A stretch of 39,189 nt of DNA from a virus (lineage: Duplodnaviria; Heunggongvirae; Uroviricota; Caudoviricetes), in the IMG/VR virus record IMGVR_UViG_2703718862_000013; one strand, written 5' to 3'. Made by a program: the position numbers and the translations under genes. Positions 5,237-38,188 of this stretch are shown here, in pieces. Each line of letters starts with the position of its first letter. Within the stretch, counting starts at the first letter, position 1. The notes beneath the pieces are model-generated. The model did no database searches and had not been told where the DNA came from. It saw only the letters and a program-made list of their open reading frames with translations.

Positions 5237-5386
5237 AACCTCGGTTTACGGGAAACGGTAAATAAGGCGGCGAATGCCCTGCCATCGGACGGCACCGCTG
5301 CGGCAGCAAACAGACTCGCCACCCCAGTAAATATTAATGGTGTTCCTTTCGACGGGACGCGGGATATAAACATTACGTCAGGAATG
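5237..5386. repeat. Inverted repeat, left arm (duplicate of tail-fibre constant region)
   Basis: About 150 bp, ~92% identical to reverse complement of 6521-6671; same reading frame NLGLRETVNKAA..NRLATPVNINGVPFDGT.DINITSGM. Confidence 0.85.
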
Positions 5387-5608
5387 CCGGAATCAACGGC
5401 CAATCAGCGTTATGTTACAGGGGTAAGACTGGGAGCGCAGGCATTAAGCAGCGGACTGGAATATAATTACTCCCTGTCATCAGGAAATGTGATTACCGGT
5501 TTTAAGACTGACGGAGACTGGGAAATGCGTGGTGGTGATGACCGTGTTTATTACAGACAGATACAATATTGTATTAATGGGAATTGGGTATCCGCTGCAA
5601 GTATTTAA
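5237..5608 (+). CDS. Silent alternative tail-fibre C-terminal cassette (Sv'-like), no start or promoter in this orientation
   Basis: Frame continues from IR-encoded constant residues into a 73-aa alternative C-terminus related to, but diverged from, the current S C-terminus. Confidence 0.7.
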   Translation, partial: NLGLRETVNKAANALPSDGTAAAANRLATPVNINGVPFDGTRDINITSGMPESTANQRYVTGVRLGAQALSSGLEYNYSLSSGNVITGFKTDGDWEMRGGDDRVYYRQIQYCINGNWVSAASI

Positions 5609-5725
5609 TTAACGGCTCATGGCGTACGGCAGGCAGCGCCTGATATATGCGTTATCTCAGACAACCCCTGTCCGTATATAGCGATAGTATTATTCCTGTT
5701 TTTATCATTGATTCACATGGTGATG

Positions 5726-6250
5726 TTTATGCAACTGATTAATGTTAAACGATATTACCCGGAAAACACCCTCTATGGTAATGATGTACAGTATTTTCAG
5801 AGTGAAGATGGTAAGGATTTCTACGAGTCCCTGCCATTATTCACCAAAAAATATAAACTTTGTATAACACCTGACAGCGGCATTATCTGCTCAATATCAC
5901 AGGACGCTTCGGCGCTGTATCCTGCGGGGTTCTCTGTGGTTGAAGTCGACGAACTCCCTGAAGGTGCTGATATTTCGGGTAACTGGAAGTTTGATAATGG
6001 CGTGATCTCCCGTATTCCGGTTAACTACGCAAGAAAACTGGAAGCAATGCGCCAGTTATATCTTAATCAGGCATATGAAAAAATTAATGACTGGAGAACA
6101 GAATTACAGCTGGGCACCATCAGTGATGAAGACAGAGCCGCACTTACCCGATGGATGGCATACATCAGTCAGGTGAAAAAAATGGAACCATCCGCCATTA
6201 AAACTGAAGCTGAATTTGATGCCATTAAATGGCCCGAACAGCCTGAATAA
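5726..6250 (+). CDS. Tail-fibre assembly chaperone (Tfa, U'-like), silent in this orientation
   Basis: Typical Tfa C-terminus ...RAALTRWMAYISQVKKM...EFDAIKWPEQPE; GGTGA RBS before ATG 5726 (ORF open from 5708). Confidence 0.8.
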   Translation, partial: FMQLINVKRYYPENTLYGNDVQYFQSEDGKDFYESLPLFTKKYKLCITPDSGIICSISQDASALYPAGFSVVEVDELPEGADISGNWKFDNGVISRIPVNYARKLEAMRQLYLNQAYEKINDWRTELQLGTISDEDRAALTRWMAYISQVKKMEPSAIKTEAEFDAIKWPEQPE

Positions 6251-6284: not shown

Positions 6285-7196
6285 TCAGACAGATGAAACT
6301 GTACGCCATGCATTACTGATATATATCTGCACAGGACGGAAATAAACCCCGCCAATGTTATCGGCAGAGTTTTTTCCTGTTTCCTGCACGTTAATACCGG
6401 AAAGCATACAACCGGAAGGCGCACTGTAATTCCATGACATTTCATTGCCTCCGGGTGAATGATAGCTCTGTGCTCCAAGCTGAACGTTCTGTACATACCG
6501 GCCATCTGCGGTTGACTGCGTCATTCCTGACGTGATGTTGATATCCTGCGTCCCGTCGAAAGGAACACCATTAATATTTACTGGGGTGGCGAGTCTGTTT
6601 GCTGCCACGGCGGTTCCACCCGATGGCAGGGCATCAGCAGCCTTATTTACCGTTTCCCGTAAACCGAGGTTATTGATAAAGGTTCCTTTGTCCGGGATAT
6701 CCGCGCCATTCTGGTCCCTGCGCAGATAACGCGCATCGCCTTCTCCCTTACTGTAAACATCAAGATTCAGACGAGCCGTCGGTTTATCCAGTACATCGTC
6801 AAAATTCCGGGATTTCTCCAGTGCTCCCACATCAGCAGCAGCCAGACTGTCTTTTCCTGATAATCCTCCCAGCCCCAGATGACGGCGGGCAGCAGCCTGT
6901 GCTTCTGCACCTGCATCCGCAATCTCCTTAAGGTTGTTTTTCCGGCTGTATGCGTTTGCTGCAATGATTGCCTTAATGGCTGTCACCAGCTGGTTCAGTT
7001 TTGCCTTATCCGGCTGAACCTTTCCTTCTGTCAGAATGGCAAGCAGCTCTGCCTGCACGATGTTCAGCCAGTCCTGACCGATATGGCTGATCCCTTTGCG
7101 TCCGTCACCTTCAGTAAACCATTTAACCTGCGTGCCCTGAGAGGGGGCCAGTGGTGGCATATCGGTCACACCTGAATTGTTGTCGACAAAATACAT
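6285..7196 (-). CDS. S: Tail fibre protein (S-like), constant N-terminus plus currently joined variable C-terminus
   Basis: Position after baseplate genes; C-terminal third lies inside invertible segment. Confidence 0.85.
   Translation of the reverse strand: MYFVDNNSGVTDMPPLAPSQGTQVKWFTEGDGRKGISHIGQDWLNIVQAELLAILTEGKVQPDKAKLNQLVTAIKAIIAANAYSRKNNLKEIADAGAEAQAAARRHLGLGGLSGKDSLAAADVGALEKSRNFDDVLDKPTARLNLDVYSKGEGDARYLRRDQNGADIPDKGTFINNLGLRETVNKAADALPSGGTAVAANRLATPVNINGVPFDGTQDINITSGMTQSTADGRYVQNVQLGAQSYHSPGGNEMSWNYSAPSGCMLSGINVQETGKNSADNIGGVYFRPVQIYISNAWRTVSSV
6521..6671. repeat. Inverted repeat, right arm (inside S coding sequence)
   Basis: Reverse complement matches 5237-5386. Confidence 0.85.
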
Positions 7197-32558: not shown

Positions 32559-33101
32559 TTATTCCTCCGTCAGCGCCACATATTCAGAATGTTTAATCTC
32601 CTGGCATTCTTCAGGAATACCCCCTTTTATTTCCCTGCCATAAGCGCCTACTTTAAACACCACGCACAGGGCATCACGGGAGAGCGACGGGGTCCACCAG
32701 GAGTCCATGTTAAACATGGAGGGGATTCTCATTACCCCCAGCTTTTCACAGAGCCAGACAAGGAAATCAGGACGCTTTCTTAACTCGCGTTCAGCGGCTT
32801 CAATCATTGCGGCAATCGCCGGTCCTTCAGGGCATGACTCATCAGGTCTGGCAATAAAGCACGGTCCGTCCCCGATAAAAGCCACATCATCGCGCTTACG
32901 CCAGCCCGCAGGCAGAGTACCAGAAAAATAAAACTCACTGATTACGTCCATGGCAAACGGCTTTAAGCGCAATCCGGCAGCGCCTGTATTTTTCAGTAAC
33001 GCCCGAAGAATACTGTTGCGTAGCGGTAAAACAGTCTGTTGATATTTGGTGAAATATTTATTTGTCTGCACACGGTCTAATTTGAAATAAAAATATGCCA
33101 T
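32559..33101 (-). CDS. Hypothetical early protein
   Basis: ORF in operon. Confidence 0.45.
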   Translation of the reverse strand: MAYFYFKLDRVQTNKYFTKYQQTVLPLRNSILRALLKNTGAAGLRLKPFAMDVISEFYFSGTLPAGWRKRDDVAFIGDGPCFIARPDESCPEGPAIAAMIEAAERELRKRPDFLVWLCEKLGVMRIPSMFNMDSWWTPSLSRDALCVVFKVGAYGREIKGGIPEECQEIKHSEYVALTEE

Positions 33102-33198: not shown

Positions 33199-33729
33199 TT
33201 ATTTATTCAGTCCGGCGTCCTGTTCAAAAGGCTCGACATAAAAACTTTCAGCGCCTTTATTCACCTTAATACCGGCAATGCCTTTCACTGCATCCGGCTC
33301 CGCCAGGACCGCTTCCTTGTTCACTTCCTCTTTCGTGCGGATGAATCGCTCAAGCCCCATACGGCGCAGCATTTCAATCACACCTTCCACATCACGACTG
33401 ACGCTGCATGATGGATTCCCCAGTCGCCATGACACCGTTCCGGTGGTCAGATTGGCAGTTTTGGTTTTGCCGCCGTTCGTCAGCTCATCACGGTTGGTTT
33501 TGCACCAGTCCTGAATCCCCTTAAAAAGCACTTTGATTTCTTTTTTAAGGTTTTCAATCTGCGGCGTATAACGGGCGGTGATTTCTGCCACTTCATCATT
33601 CATCGCTGTTTCCAGGCGCAGCGCCTCTCGCTGAATATCGCCCAGGGTGCGGATATCGCGGCTGACCTCTTCACGGGTCTGCGGTGCCGCCTCTGCTGCG
33701 GCCTTTAATTTTGTAACGCGTTTTGCCAT
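33199..33729 (-). CDS. gam: Gam host-nuclease inhibitor (Ku-like DNA-end-binding protein)
   Basis: RDIRTLGDIQREALRLETAMNDEVAEIT...WCKTNRDELTNGGKTKTANLTTGTVSWR...ERFIRTKEEVNKEA...PFEQDAG closely matches recalled Mu Gam. Confidence 0.85.
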   Translation of the reverse strand: MAKRVTKLKAAAEAAPQTREEVSRDIRTLGDIQREALRLETAMNDEVAEITARYTPQIENLKKEIKVLFKGIQDWCKTNRDELTNGGKTKTANLTTGTVSWRLGNPSCSVSRDVEGVIEMLRRMGLERFIRTKEEVNKEAVLAEPDAVKGIAGIKVNKGAESFYVEPFEQDAGLNK

Positions 33730-33740
33730 TTTGTTTTTCC

Positions 33741-34034
33741 TTATTGCAATGTATCTGGTCCGTTCTGAACAGAACGGCGTTCAACGGAGCTGCTTACCCC
33801 CATGGCCTGCATGGAACCCTGTAGTTCATCTGTCAGAAACTGAATGATTGTGGGGCTGTGATATTTAAGAATTTGTGCATAAACATCACAGGGTCCTGCC
33901 GGTCTGTTCTCTGTATCACGTTCGATTTTTACCGTGGCAGTAACCCCCTCCGTGATTTCCTCACTATCATTACCGGCTGGCTTTACTTCATGCATTACGT
34001 GGTCAAATTCAAAAATAACGCGTACTTTGCTCAT
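33741..34034 (-). CDS. Hypothetical small protein, paralog B (start at MSKVRVIFEF)
   Basis: N-terminus paralogous to adjacent upstream ORF. Confidence 0.4.
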   Translation of the reverse strand: MSKVRVIFEFDHVMHEVKPAGNDSEEITEGVTATVKIERDTENRPAGPCDVYAQILKYHSPTIIQFLTDELQGSMQAMGVSSSVERRSVQNGPDTLQ

Positions 34035-34038
34035 GGAA

Positions 34039-34311
34039 TTACCCCTGTTGATTAAATTCATTACCTTTAATAACCCCGGAACGCATGCTCATATCTTTCA
34101 TGAGCGCACTGGCTTTCATTGCCACAAGTTCAGCAAAGTCTCTGCTTTCCGCGAGCATAACCACCCCAAAAATCATGGCAGGTCCATCACCTTTCTGCTT
34201 TATCCCGGTTGAACGTATGTCCAGACTTATCCCCATGCGCACTGTTCCATCCGCGTTTTTATGGATAACGTGCTCCTTGTATTCGAAAATAATGCGTACG
34301 ACTTTACTCAT
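34039..34311 (-). CDS. Hypothetical small protein, paralog A (MSKVVRIIFEY...)
   Basis: ORF in operon; N-terminus shared with 33741..34034. Confidence 0.4.
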   Translation of the reverse strand: MSKVVRIIFEYKEHVIHKNADGTVRMGISLDIRSTGIKQKGDGPAMIFGVVMLAESRDFAELVAMKASALMKDMSMRSGVIKGNEFNQQG

Positions 34312-34589
34312 CCTCTGGTCCTCGTTCTGTTTGGATAACTGACCCGGCGTCTGACCTCACGGCAGAACCGAATCATGGCATTAAAGGCTTCTTCCTCCGT
34401 CACCGCTTCCGGTATCCCCGGAACCAGTAACTGCTCCTGTTCATCACGTCCATGACGCGCCATAACCTCAATCACATGCCGTACTGTGGCAGGCTTTCCG
34501 GCAACTATCGGCAATGCACCTTCCGGCAGGACGTAACCCAGTTCAATGAGACCGCTCGACCACGCCCACGCAATTAGATTTCGTTTCAC
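34308..34589 (-). CDS. Hypothetical early protein
   Basis: ORF in operon. Confidence 0.4.
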   Translation of the reverse strand: MKRNLIAWAWSSGLIELGYVLPEGALPIVAGKPATVRHVIEVMARHGRDEQEQLLVPGIPEAVTEEEAFNAMIRFCREVRRRVSYPNRTRTRG

Positions 34590-34590
34590 C

Positions 34591-34845
34591 TCACTCCTCC
34601 CAGTAAACCGTGCAGCCGCTGATGCGGGTAGCCTTCACACGGCGGCGCAGGCCGTTGGTCTGTATGGTGATTTCAATTTCACCGGTTCCCTTAACTTCGC
34701 TTACCGGCGGCGTGGTTTTCAGGGCATAACGTTGTGGGTAGCGTTTGCTGCGTTCCAGTACCGCACCGGCAAGTTCAGTCAGACGGCGTGCACTGTTCAG
34801 GGAGTCGAATAAATTCATTTTTTTACCGCAGGATTGCATATTCAT
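34591..34845 (-). CDS. Hypothetical early protein
   Basis: ORF in operon. Confidence 0.4.
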   Translation of the reverse strand: MNMQSCGKKMNLFDSLNSARRLTELAGAVLERSKRYPQRYALKTTPPVSEVKGTGEIEITIQTNGLRRRVKATRISGCTVYWEE

Positions 34846-34857
34846 ATAACACCTCGT

Positions 34858-35085
34858 TTATCTGACTTGTTTTGCACCAACAGAACGGCATATTCCCCTG
34901 TAAACTTCTGTCGCACCTTCGCGATCAAGTCCGGCAGATATCACCATTCGTGTGCGGTCATTAAATTCAAAAAGTAAATCACCACATTCTTTATTTTCGG
35001 CCAGTGAAATCACCTTCACGTTATCGAAATTCACCAGGTAAAAGCGTCCGTAAATATCCGGAATATTAAATACCGCCATAATCAC
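34858..35085 (-). CDS. Hypothetical small protein at the position of Mu kil
   Basis: 75 aa, immediately after B; positional analogy only. Confidence 0.35.
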   Translation of the reverse strand: MIMAVFNIPDIYGRFYLVNFDNVKVISLAENKECGDLLFEFNDRTRMVISAGLDREGATEVYRGICRSVGAKQVR

Positions 35086-36023
35086 ACCTGTGAGAGTAAT
35101 TCAGGGTTGGTATAAACCTCTTTAAAGGCCGCATTAATATGTTTTTCTGTCAGCACAGCGCCTTCACCACTGGCGGTGATCCACGCCTGGTTAAGCGTAT
35201 GCGTCAGAACACGTAATGCTCCCGGTTTTTCAGCGATAGCCTGCATGACGGCCAGCTCGGCCTCACCACTGATCCCCCATGCCCTGGCAATGGCCAGCAC
35301 ATCCGCCTTTTTGGCCTTGCGAAGTTGTTTTGTACGGGCAAGACGGCTGAACAGGCGCGATAAATCATCAACGGCGCGGCGTCCACCTTTAAACAGTCCG
35401 CGCGGGTTACCAATAAGCACCATCCCGATCCCCGTGGCGTCCTGGATTGCCCTGAGTTGCTCCAGACCGTCAATACCAAGATGATCCGCCTCATCAACAA
35501 TCACCAGTCCACGCGTTCCCATCAGGCGACGGCGGATTGCGCGGGATAATGCCCCTTTGTTCGCGCGGGTGTAATCAATCCCCAGTTCCTCTGCCAGCTC
35601 CAGCAGACACTCCGTGACGCTGGAATGCGCAGGCGACAGGGTGATCATCCAGGTGTTCGGTTGCTCCTGACAGTAATTACGGGCTGTGGCCGTTTTACCC
35701 ACACCCGGTACGCCCACAATGACGTTAATACAGCCCATCAGGCGAACCGCCTGAAACAGTGCGCGCAGCTCCTGGACTGTCTGCGTTTCAACAAACTGCG
35801 GCGGCTCGGGCAGTGCGCTTTGTTTATTCCAGTTCTCATACCAGGAACGCAGGGAAGCAGCCACAGCAGCGTTATCGCCTTTATATTTCCCCTTACGGAA
35901 AGCCGATAATGTGCCGTCGGAAATTCCCGCCTCTCTGGCGATGGCATACTGCGTCAGTACGCCGCCATCAATAAGTTCATCAATGGTCTTGATTACATCG
36001 TTAATATCGGTCATATTATTCAC
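35082..36023 (-). CDS. B: MuB-like AAA+ ATPase (target DNA activator of transposition)
   Basis: Walker A GVPGVGKT; LPEPPQFVETQTV, LVIVDEADHLG, KKADV.AIA.AW match recalled MuB. Confidence 0.9.
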   Translation of the reverse strand: MNNMTDINDVIKTIDELIDGGVLTQYAIAREAGISDGTLSAFRKGKYKGDNAAVAASLRSWYENWNKQSALPEPPQFVETQTVQELRALFQAVRLMGCINVIVGVPGVGKTATARNYCQEQPNTWMITLSPAHSSVTECLLELAEELGIDYTRANKGALSRAIRRRLMGTRGLVIVDEADHLGIDGLEQLRAIQDATGIGMVLIGNPRGLFKGGRRAVDDLSRLFSRLARTKQLRKAKKADVLAIARAWGISGEAELAVMQAIAEKPGALRVLTHTLNQAWITASGEGAVLTEKHINAAFKEVYTNPELLSQV

Positions 36024-36063: not shown

Positions 36064-36098
36064 AACCTGAGTCACCCCTCGGGTTATTTTTTTTATTT
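36064..36098 (+). terminator. Terminator-like hairpin plus T-run on plus strand at the A/B junction
   Basis: AACCTGAG-tcacccc-CTCGGGTT followed by ATTTTTTTTATTT. Confidence 0.35.
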
Positions 36099-38188
36099 CA
36101 GGCCAGCGGATCATTTTCTTTTAATTTCGCTTCGAGCAGTTGCAAACCCCGCTGGAAATTACGCTCGTATTCTTCGTCAGGTTCATCGTCAGCGACTGGT
36201 TGCTGAACGGTCACCGTATTACCCACAGGGCGGTATATGTTTTCCAGCCATGGCTCCTGCGGCTTGTGCTCCAGCACGTTGACAACCTCATCCTCGGCAT
36301 CACGGATTTTTTCCTCTGCGCGTTTACGCATACCTTTAAGGCGCTGCTGCTGTTTGTAGTATTCCGCGCTGACAGGGAAGGCTTCGCGTTTATTGCCGTC
36401 CCATACCGCCTCGCAAATCACGCTGCCATCCGGGCGGCGTACGGTAATTCGTTCGGCATCATGAATGTCATAGCTGATAAGCACTTTGCGGCCATGTTCA
36501 TCACGCAGCTCGGGCGCGTAGTAAATATTATTCAGCCAGCGTATTTCACAGCGTCTTACAGGGCGTTCCACCATCGGCCGGAACATGTCCCGCAATTCCA
36601 CATCGGACAGCCATTCAATTTCCGTGTCCTCTTCCGCCAGGCGTTTTTTTCTGAACTCCGCCGGGCTGTAATGTTTACCGTTCGGCTTTATGGGTAATTC
36701 ATCGTGCGGCCGGTTGTTGTACCACTCAACGCCGTCACGAATGGCATCAATCAGTTCAGACCAGGACGGTAAATCACGCATCGCTGACTGCTGCCGGGCG
36801 TTCAGCCGCTTGCCCTGTTGCAGGGCACTGAATGCCGAGCGTAAATCGCGGTTGGTTTTACGTAACGTCTCGCGATCTGCACCTTTCCCGAAATAGGTGC
36901 GGTATTTACGGGCTATGCGCATCGGTAATGTGCGGTTAAGCCGTTCGATAATGCCCCGTCCCTGCGGATTACCGGCAATCCCGGTCGGGTGATTAATCCC
37001 CAGTCGCGGTAGTATCCCCACAACCTCCTTATCCAGGATGTCGGCCGTTTCCCCCGAGCCATTATCCGAGTAATACAGAAACGGTTTGCCGTGATGGCGA
37101 ATGCCGTGCTGTATGGCACCGGCTACGGCGAAAACATTTTCAGCCAGGTCAAGGCTCCAGCCCACCACAAAGCGCGTGCCACCGTCGATAACAAAGGTCA
37201 CTTCCGGTGCAAATGGTCGCCCGTGAACCGGGTGCGCACATTTCAGCTTCATGCCGTGACCGTCACCAATCCAGACATAATTCACCGGCATTCTGGACCA
37301 GTCGCGGCGCGTGAATCCCTCAAGCTGGCGGTATTCACTGCCGGTCACCCGGCCTTTTTGTTTCACCACTTCCGGCAGTTTCTTCATCGCGCGGCGAATG
37401 GTGTCATAAGAGGGCATGATATCGAGCATATAAGGCTCATCAGCGTGCCGGTGCTGCCATTCGGCGACAAAATCCTCGTAAGCCTCGGTCATTGGTCGGC
37501 CGTTTGACTGGCGATACTGCGCCAGAAACTCGGGCAACCAGCTAATATCTTCGGCTTTTATTTCCTGACGTTTACCCGGTGCCAGTAAAAGTAGGCGTTC
37601 AGCGGCGTTCTGCGCCTTGTTAAAGGCCGCAATCCAGCGTTTCAGCGTGATTTCACTCAACGCGCGGCTGTTTCCCTTTTTGGCGTTCGCCGTTTCAACC
37701 ATTGCCACAATGCGTTCGTCCAGTTGCGAGCGTGACAGACGGTCAACAATAAACCGGATAGCTTTAGCGCAGCTGAAACCGGGTTGTTGCGCGAATTTAA
37801 GCACCTCGCTGACAATCGCAATTCGTGCATCGGCCACCTGGCGCTGTTTTTCAGTCAGTGCATTGATACGTTCGACCATCAGTTGGGGTGATCCGCGATA
37901 TGCCTCCACCGCATCAACCACGGCAGGTGAGCGTCTGGCCTTTGTCACCACCGGAACCGGTGACTCATCGGCTTTTTGCGCCATCAGTTGCAGGGCGTAG
38001 CGTTCACGTAATGCCTGCTGCGTCACTTCAGGTAAACAGTCGATGCTGTATTCAGTTGCTTTAGATCCTGAGCGACGACGGGAACAACAGCTTTTCCCTT
38101 GTGCGTAACGTTGTAATGCCTGGCGAATACCTTTTGTAGTTGCAGGCATTCCGGGCGCACCAATCAGTTCTTTTGCAATGAAATACAT
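36098..38188 (-). CDS. A: MuA-like DDE transposase
   Basis: 696 aa; WIGDGHG and SDNGSGE catalytic-core-like motifs; N-terminal DNA-binding domain; between ner and B. Confidence 0.9.
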   Translation of the reverse strand: MYFIAKELIGAPGMPATTKGIRQALQRYAQGKSCCSRRRSGSKATEYSIDCLPEVTQQALRERYALQLMAQKADESPVPVVTKARRSPAVVDAVEAYRGSPQLMVERINALTEKQRQVADARIAIVSEVLKFAQQPGFSCAKAIRFIVDRLSRSQLDERIVAMVETANAKKGNSRALSEITLKRWIAAFNKAQNAAERLLLLAPGKRQEIKAEDISWLPEFLAQYRQSNGRPMTEAYEDFVAEWQHRHADEPYMLDIMPSYDTIRRAMKKLPEVVKQKGRVTGSEYRQLEGFTRRDWSRMPVNYVWIGDGHGMKLKCAHPVHGRPFAPEVTFVIDGGTRFVVGWSLDLAENVFAVAGAIQHGIRHHGKPFLYYSDNGSGETADILDKEVVGILPRLGINHPTGIAGNPQGRGIIERLNRTLPMRIARKYRTYFGKGADRETLRKTNRDLRSAFSALQQGKRLNARQQSAMRDLPSWSELIDAIRDGVEWYNNRPHDELPIKPNGKHYSPAEFRKKRLAEEDTEIEWLSDVELRDMFRPMVERPVRRCEIRWLNNIYYAPELRDEHGRKVLISYDIHDAERITVRRPDGSVICEAVWDGNKREAFPVSAEYYKQQQRLKGMRKRAEEKIRDAEDEVVNVLEHKPQEPWLENIYRPVGNTVTVQQPVADDEPDEEYERNFQRGLQLLEAKLKENDPLA

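Follow-up and report, generated by a model that had tools for sequence, protein, structure and literature searches.

Two adjacent small early genes upstream of gam in a Mu-like prophage of E. coli: a paralogous pair with exchangeable alleles at the downstream member

The gene pair and its early operon

The stretch of DNA analysed here, hereafter the window (39,189 nucleotides), consists almost wholly of a single Mu-like prophage, which runs along the minus strand. The two adjacent ORFs at 33741-34311 pointed out in a first-pass annotation were confirmed as neighbouring genes on the same strand (minus), and are designated P1 and P2 (Table 1). The ORF called mechanically for P2 spans 33741-34061; the conserved start, which is also the one annotated in RefSeq, is the ATG at 34034 (MSKV...). 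The 571-bp region of the pair was 100% identical to that in a prophage of Escherichia coli STEC2018-607, in which RefSeq annotates both genes as CDSs labelled hypothetical proteins. Related copies of the locus were found in 229-232 of 5426 complete E. coli genomes (about 4%), many of them STEC.

Table 1. Features of the early region of the window, listed along the minus strand
Feature	Position	Strand	Remarks
MuA-type transposase gene	36098-38188	-	
MuB-type ATPase gene	35082-36023	-	
75-aa ORF	between the MuB-type ATPase gene and the kil-like gene	-	
kil-like gene	34591-34845	-	phrog_2679; bounds the conserved kil - X - gam order on its upstream side
93-aa gene (orf93)	34308-34589	-	upstream of P1; phrog_1518, label 'host nuclease inhibitor'
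P1, basic paralog	34039-34311	-	90 aa, pI 9.45; in the ORF list; RefSeq CDS WP_000049430.1 in the identical prophage
First 54 coding bases of P1	34258-34311	-	MSKVVRIIFEYKEHVIHK; segment resembling the P2 start
Possible RNA hairpin, P1 end/P2 start	34001-34075	-	MFE -28.2 kcal/mol, z = -2.3
P2, acidic paralog	33741-34034	-	97 aa, pI 4.88; RefSeq WP_023982865.1, 294 nt, in the identical prophage
First 48 coding bases of P2	33987-34034	-	MSKVRVIFEFDHVMHE; left edge of the exchangeable P2 cassette
gam, host-nuclease inhibitor	33199-33729	-	Mu Gam family; PF07352, E 1.5e-41; phrog_491
180-aa gene (orf180)	32559-33101	-	just downstream of gam; phrog_2260, unannotated

The placement of the pair beside a host-nuclease-inhibitor gene in a Mu-like early region, also proposed in the first pass, was borne out by the Pfam match of Gam and by the kil-like, MuB and MuA genes upstream. 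Genes resembling gp11 and gp12 were found downstream of gam, and Kil_protein (PF26843) occurs in related loci at the position equivalent to that of the kil-like gene. The operon is tightly packed: the P1 start overlaps the upstream stop codon (ATGA), and gaps of 4 and 11 bases separate P1 from P2 and P2 from gam, respectively.

Two other slots of this region vary among related prophages. The 93-aa gene, for which neither a Pfam nor an NCBIfam match was obtained, is missing from several of them (L003, L008, L016 and L017), and some prophages without it have a 139-aa ORF upstream of kil in its stead. L014 and L015 either lack the 180-aa gene or have another in its position, and in L003 it is only 23% identical, while its neighbours are more than 94% identical. 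Its slot behaves as a second replaceable cassette flanking gam.

P1 is a full-length member of phrog_4107 (E 2.1e-61, residues 1-90 on profile positions 1-90 of 90), and P2 of phrog_2230 (E 3.6e-35, residues 3-97 on positions 1-88 of 89); neither PHROG is annotated for function. Both genes are under purifying selection, with dN/dS values of 0.17-0.29 for P1 and of 0.17-0.34 across the two genes. The idea that they are chance ORFs or decaying remnants devoid of function has next to no probability. It could appeal to the fact that no function is annotated for them anywhere, and to copies that are truncated or frameshifted (P0040, P0051 and P0074). Intact ORFs of fixed length nevertheless occur in distant prophages and in clearly more than 200 E. 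coli genomes. The dN/dS remains at 0.17-0.34 when alleles with dS near 1 are compared, the genes keep their position, and P2 yields a confident AF2 model. It is because of this conservation pattern that the idea is refuted. Frameshifted or truncated P1 and P2 were observed in some E. coli assemblies (P0040, P0041, P0051, P0074 and P0075), one of them on 24 contigs, and the existence of such copies indicates that the genes can decay in resident prophages.

Homology along the two proteins

P1 and P2 share the N-terminus MSKV(V)R[IV]IFE[YF], with 11 identical and 3 conservative positions among the first 18 residues. This likeness, from which the first-pass annotation had set out, proved significant. 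BLASTP aligned the two proteins over 86 residues with 23% identity (E 1e-5), and the local alignment score of 60 was reached by none of 5000 shuffles, which had a mean of 24 and a standard deviation of 4.2. A similarity of the DNA around the two starts had been reported as well, and it was upheld on one side of the start codon. The first ~50 coding bases matched in 39 of the 54 columns of a local alignment, as good a result being obtained in 1 of 3000 shuffles, whereas the 30 bases upstream of the starts agreed at 8 of 30 positions, corresponding to the chance level. The likeness stops at the ATG.

Past the N-terminus the two proteins had been described as diverging completely, a description that family profiles contradicted. 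Relatives were gathered by two word-indexed searches and by profile searches of sets of 1.84 billion and 5.8 billion proteins. Alignment of the P1 family with the P2 family by hhalign gave an E-value of 4.6e-8 over 76 columns. When the first 20 residues were cut from every sequence, the remaining C-terminal parts aligned with E 3.8e-4 over 53 columns and the register was unchanged. P1-type proteins also scored ~20 bits on an HMM built from P2-type sequences alone. The joint alignment of the two types is in register, and its common landmarks are the first strand (VxVIFxFE), the second strand (G[VI]s.x[VI]), a G-P before helix 1, an S/A-P turn and a glycine after helix 2.

The AF2 model of P2 was confident (pLDDT 83.9, pTM 0.67) and consisted of a long beta-hairpin (strands 4-21 and 24-39), two helices (48-58 and 60-77) and a disordered tail. 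The model of P1 was poor (pLDDT 63.5) and had a strand where P2 has helix 1. It is the sequence profiles, and not two confident structures, that argue for a fold common to P1 and P2.

The duplication with module swapping suggested in the first-pass annotation would mean a recent duplication of the 5' end alone, or the fusion of one N-terminal module to two unrelated C-terminal modules. Such a history would account for 18 N-terminal residues that are far more alike than the remainder, and for C-terminal parts that, compared pairwise on their own, were marginal (237 of 5000 shuffles as good). The family profiles without the N-terminus align in register with the E-value given above, however, the lengths of P1 and P2 and the order of their elements agree, and distant single-copy members bridge the two proteins. 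The N-terminal strand is the most conserved part throughout the family, so that its likeness between P1 and P2 needs no separate history. The DNA 5' of the starts is also unrelated. A duplicated 5' end or a module fusion thus appears largely refuted, and is regarded here as highly improbable.

P1 and P2 are therefore paralogs over their full length, belonging to a single small gene family, and their common N-terminus represents the best-conserved strand of that family rather than a separately acquired module. By the same profile comparisons, PHROG 2230 and PHROG 4107, which are kept apart in PHROGs, make up one superfamily, a relationship that is new here.

Distribution, ancestry and allelic exchange

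The family was found to be narrow, with 18 representatives at E <= 0.001 in an exhaustive profile search of 1.84 billion proteins. One of these, P0053, was dismissed as spurious, being a repetitive protein of 710 aa with 13 matches to a stretch of 20 profile positions. A tblastn search of 50,697 phage records with P1 and P2 as queries matched two Stx phages only, phage Mu being absent from the matches. These two Stx-converting phages (L002, LC727881.1, and L003, LC727895.1) carry a complete inserted Mu-like phage, and were so annotated by their depositors. A locus search with the subfamily alignment led to one genome, that of Citrobacter braakii, the host of a single-copy member. The distant single-copy members are 26-31% identical to P2, begin with MSNKxQVIFTFE and fall in phrog_2230. 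Judged from these searches, the family occurs nowhere but in the early ('semi-essential') operon of Mu-like prophages of enterobacteria.

Gene order was read from a scan with subfamily HMMs of 70 sequences, namely 69 fetched loci and the window. Wherever the pair was intact in a locus, the gene immediately after a P1-type gene was a P2-type gene; this order was not seen in L066, which ends just past P1, and in L069, in which both genes are truncated. A P2-type gene without a P1-type gene was detected in 13 more distant loci and in L018. The latter locus, from E. coli 23CRST049, has ISEc22 (IS66 family) directly upstream of P2 (3415-5750), where P1 and the early genes preceding it would be expected, and the early operon of that prophage is therefore inactivated.

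In the single-copy loci whose gene tables were read (L005-L007 and L019-L021), the family gene lies between a Kil_protein gene and a gene for either Gam or DUF3164. The DUF3164 (PF11363) gene occupies the position of gam, directly after the P2-type gene, in L006, L007, L020 and L021 (about 5303-5941 or 6303-6941), which suggests that DUF3164 and gam are positional, perhaps functional, alternatives. On the simplest reading of these arrangements, the ancestor had one P2-type gene, with kil on one side and gam or DUF3164 on the other, and a tandem duplication in the E. coli lineage gave rise to P1, the upstream copy, which would have diverged strongly since (now 23% identity).

The comparison with twelve related prophages set P2 apart from its neighbours. 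The P2 proteins were 55-59% identical in most of these prophages, whereas the products of B, kil, orf93, P1 and gam were mostly 94-100% identical. At the nucleotide level, identity was complete over the first ~40 bases of P2, then collapsed, and recovered at the stop codon. Two classes of P2 allele were distinguished, with 59% identity between them, and the window carries the rarer class, P2.1 (5 of 27 distinct sequences). In loci with the other class, P2 showed dS of 0.9-1.2 against 0.03-0.24 for the flanking genes, at dN/dS of 0.27-0.34. Chimeric P2 alleles were also found, such as P0046, and P1 class 1 occurred with both P2 classes, so that alleles of P1 and P2 reassort. Across 35 distinct prophage sequences, the first 30 bases of P2 were nearly invariant and had the lowest diversity (pi 0.006).

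Positive selection was considered as the cause of the divergence of P2 and was rejected, the dN/dS being about 0.3. A dS exceeding that of the flanks several-fold to about twenty-fold points to imported old alleles held under purifying selection, not to rapid local adaptation. Whole P2 genes, belonging to two old allele classes, are thus swapped by homologous recombination among prophages that are almost identical elsewhere. This exchange is anchored on one side in the invariant segment formed by the P1 end and the P2 start, and on the other at the P2/gam junction. Of the duplication with module swapping envisaged in the first pass, the duplication stands, as an old event that left paralogs with 23% identity, and the exchange of modules between P1 and P2 does not; the swapping takes place, by these comparisons, between prophages at P2. 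Variability is not peculiar to P2, since the other slots of the operon (orf93 and orf180) vary too, and the combination of old lineages with recombination that makes up the P2 dimorphism is also seen at neutral mosaic joints in phages. In the joint claim of paralogy, single-copy ancestry followed by duplication, purifying selection and recombining P2 allele classes, all read from sequence, we place high confidence.

Relation to phage Mu and possible roles of the pair

Neither P1 nor P2 had a Pfam match at E <= 0.1 or an NCBIfam match, and PADLOC gave no match at E <= 1 for these two proteins or for the products of the three upstream genes. A search of PDB sequence profiles returned a sole match, to eL31 (E 0.03), which was treated as noise. 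Foldseek searches with the P2 model found nothing below E 0.04 in PDB and BFVD (TM-scores <= 0.37), and the best match among 350,542 PDB chains had E 0.73 (TM <= 0.34); RHH and AbrB entries were absent from the PDB Foldseek matches listed for P2. In the family alignment, no conserved residues pointing to catalysis were seen. The isoelectric points divide the family: P1-type proteins are all basic (8.7-9.7), P2-type proteins of tandem loci acidic (4.6-6.3), and single-copy relatives near neutral (5.4-7.9).

The predicted strand-strand-helix-helix order of the P2 model, with its short turn between the helices, would suit a small dimeric nucleic-acid-binding regulator, loosely like the ribbon-helix-helix or swapped-hairpin proteins, that tunes early/middle transcription or translation. 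The basic character of P1 would agree with this role, and the weak top Foldseek matches include sheet-plus-helix dimers such as levivirus coat proteins, none of them significant. Against it, neither the structure searches nor the sequence searches linked the proteins significantly to a DNA- or RNA-binding family, the P2-type and single-copy members are acidic to neutral, and dimorphic alleles would need matching changes in their binding sites, none of which were seen. We consider such a regulator very unlikely.

A protein of phage Mu itself, gp7 (E6, 87 aa; phrog_10252), is similar in size to P1 and P2 and lies between kil and gam in the semi-essential (SE) region. The order of genes in Mu is kil, gp6, gp7, gp8, gp9 and gam, and that in the window is kil-like, orf93, P1, P2 and gam. 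The Mu gene differs in being single-copy and in having gp8 and gp9 between it and gam, whereas P2 directly adjoins gam. Mu gp7 starts with MAKVIIEIK, and its LAGMVALLVLNKSQKIIN stretch aligns with the family motif GPxxxYAxILKxxSPxII. The match of gp7 to phrog_2230 was weak (E 0.009), as was the hhalign comparison of its family profile with that of P1/P2 (E 0.0098, 68 columns, HH probability 4%), which ran end-to-end and in register; with single sequences, hhalign gave E 0.05-0.44. The family HMM had no match at E <= 1e-3 in the Mu early region, and tblastn of P1 and P2 had none in Mu. A link of the P1/P2 family to Mu gp7 is therefore no more than tentative.

The SE region of Mu comprises 14 ORFs, mostly unassigned, and its deletion restores host viability (PMC3325207). 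The segment is dispensable, and the functions encoded there are directed at the host and in part lethal (PMC3325207). Mu Kil and Mu Gam have small size, operon and timing in common with P1 and P2 and are dispensable for Mu growth (PMC3325207), and their roles provide a precedent for host-directed functions in this segment of the operon. P1 and P2 are unlike Kil and Gam in sequence, with no match to PF07352, PF26843 or the kil and gam PHROGs, and no nuclease-inhibitor or division-inhibitor activity is implied for them. Small early-operon proteins that bind host proteins are also found in transposable phages of Pseudomonas, namely Tip of D3112 and Aqs1 of DMS3. The pair may be likened to these two by position and size, although the hosts and protein families differ.

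With the long beta-hairpin packed on two helices in the model, and with no conserved catalytic residues, P1 and P2 would be non-enzymatic proteins of ~10 kDa that expose a two-stranded sheet and probably oligomerise. They would be translated from the early transcript, as are Kil and Gam, when lytic growth begins, and would most likely bind a host protein or a defence component. This host-binding mechanism, suggested by position, size and evolutionary pattern, is put forward tentatively; host takeover or anti-defence, named as candidate roles in the first-pass annotation, would be plausible. The host-binding reading is weakened by the fact that alleles of P1 and P2 reassort and that the operon is mosaic in general. 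The explanation as a whole, in which the history of a paralog family is combined with non-enzymatic early host-binding proteins, possibly forming a charge-complementary pair, falls in our judgement a little short of an even chance.

The immediate neighbourhood of the family gene would also fit a role internal to the phage, in which P1 and P2 serve as accessories of the Gam/DUF3164 step or of transposition or replication, acting on Mu DNA ends or on the transpososome. The old, unassigned 'arm' (amplified replication of Mu) function would be one candidate for such a role. In every related locus with a gene table read, the next gene after the family gene is gam or the DUF3164 gene, at a gap of 8-13 bases that suggests coupled translation, and P1 is basic with a hairpin face that is predicted to be polar and positively charged. 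Co-transcription of the SE region with A and B in the early operon is established for Mu (PMC3325207), and by analogy the family gene would be co-transcribed with A and B as well. However, the downstream partner switches between Gam and DUF3164 while the family stays, leaving no fixed partner, and phage Mu has at best a remote homolog (gp7/E6), which does not adjoin gam. The absence of the family from most Mu-like phages (18 representatives among 1.84 billion proteins) is hard to fit to a core role in replication, and frameshifted and IS-disrupted copies are tolerated in prophages. A phage-internal function is accordingly held to be unlikely.

Within the host-binding reading, the split into basic and acidic members after the duplication suggests that a homodimer turned into a P1:P2 heterodimer. 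The heterodimer would form via the conserved N-terminal strand, and the variable parts of P2 (strand 2, the helix surface and the C-terminal tail), as read from the two allele sequences, would set target specificity. This detail is doubtful. The reassorting alleles argue against a tightly co-evolving heterodimer, unless the interface is the conserved N-terminal strand. A stronger version, which we rate as quite unlikely, takes P1 and P2 as an obligate charge-complementary heterodimer of unseen fold, derived from a homodimeric early protein, in which the P2 allele picks the host defence or host factor to be neutralised. If true, it would define a new phage family for counter-defence or takeover, in which specificity is set by exchangeable alleles and to which Mu gp7 (E6) may belong.

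For decades the Mu-type semi-essential early region has stood as an inventory of small ORFs, most of them unassigned. A full-text literature search found nothing on the P1 and P2 genes or on Mu E6, and the papers retrieved deal with the SE region in general terms only. What is gained here is the merging of two PHROGs, the single-copy ancestry with a later duplication, the recognition that divergence within the early operon peaks at P2, and a tentative bridge to Mu gp7, which would be useful as Mu genetics is easy. If the pair neutralises a host system, the two natural P2 alleles in otherwise isogenic prophages would amount to a ready-made specificity experiment; if it neutralises none, the pair would be one more ordinary duplication of an accessory gene.

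The junction of the two genes may also fold as RNA. The possible hairpin at the P1 end and P2 start was equalled in folding energy by 5 of 200 shuffles, and an Rfam search of the P2-start RNA gave no match. In its 17-bp A/U- and G.U-rich stem, the last P1 codons (GVIKGN) would pair with P2 codons 5-11 (RVIFEFD), and the loop contains the P1 stop codon, the P2 Shine-Dalgarno sequence and the P2 AUG. The core stem was invariant in 14 distinct sequences, with essentially no covariation. The hairpin is a candidate translational-coupling element on the basis of its predicted fold, and it may account for the near-invariance of the first 30 bases of P2, or be incidental to it.
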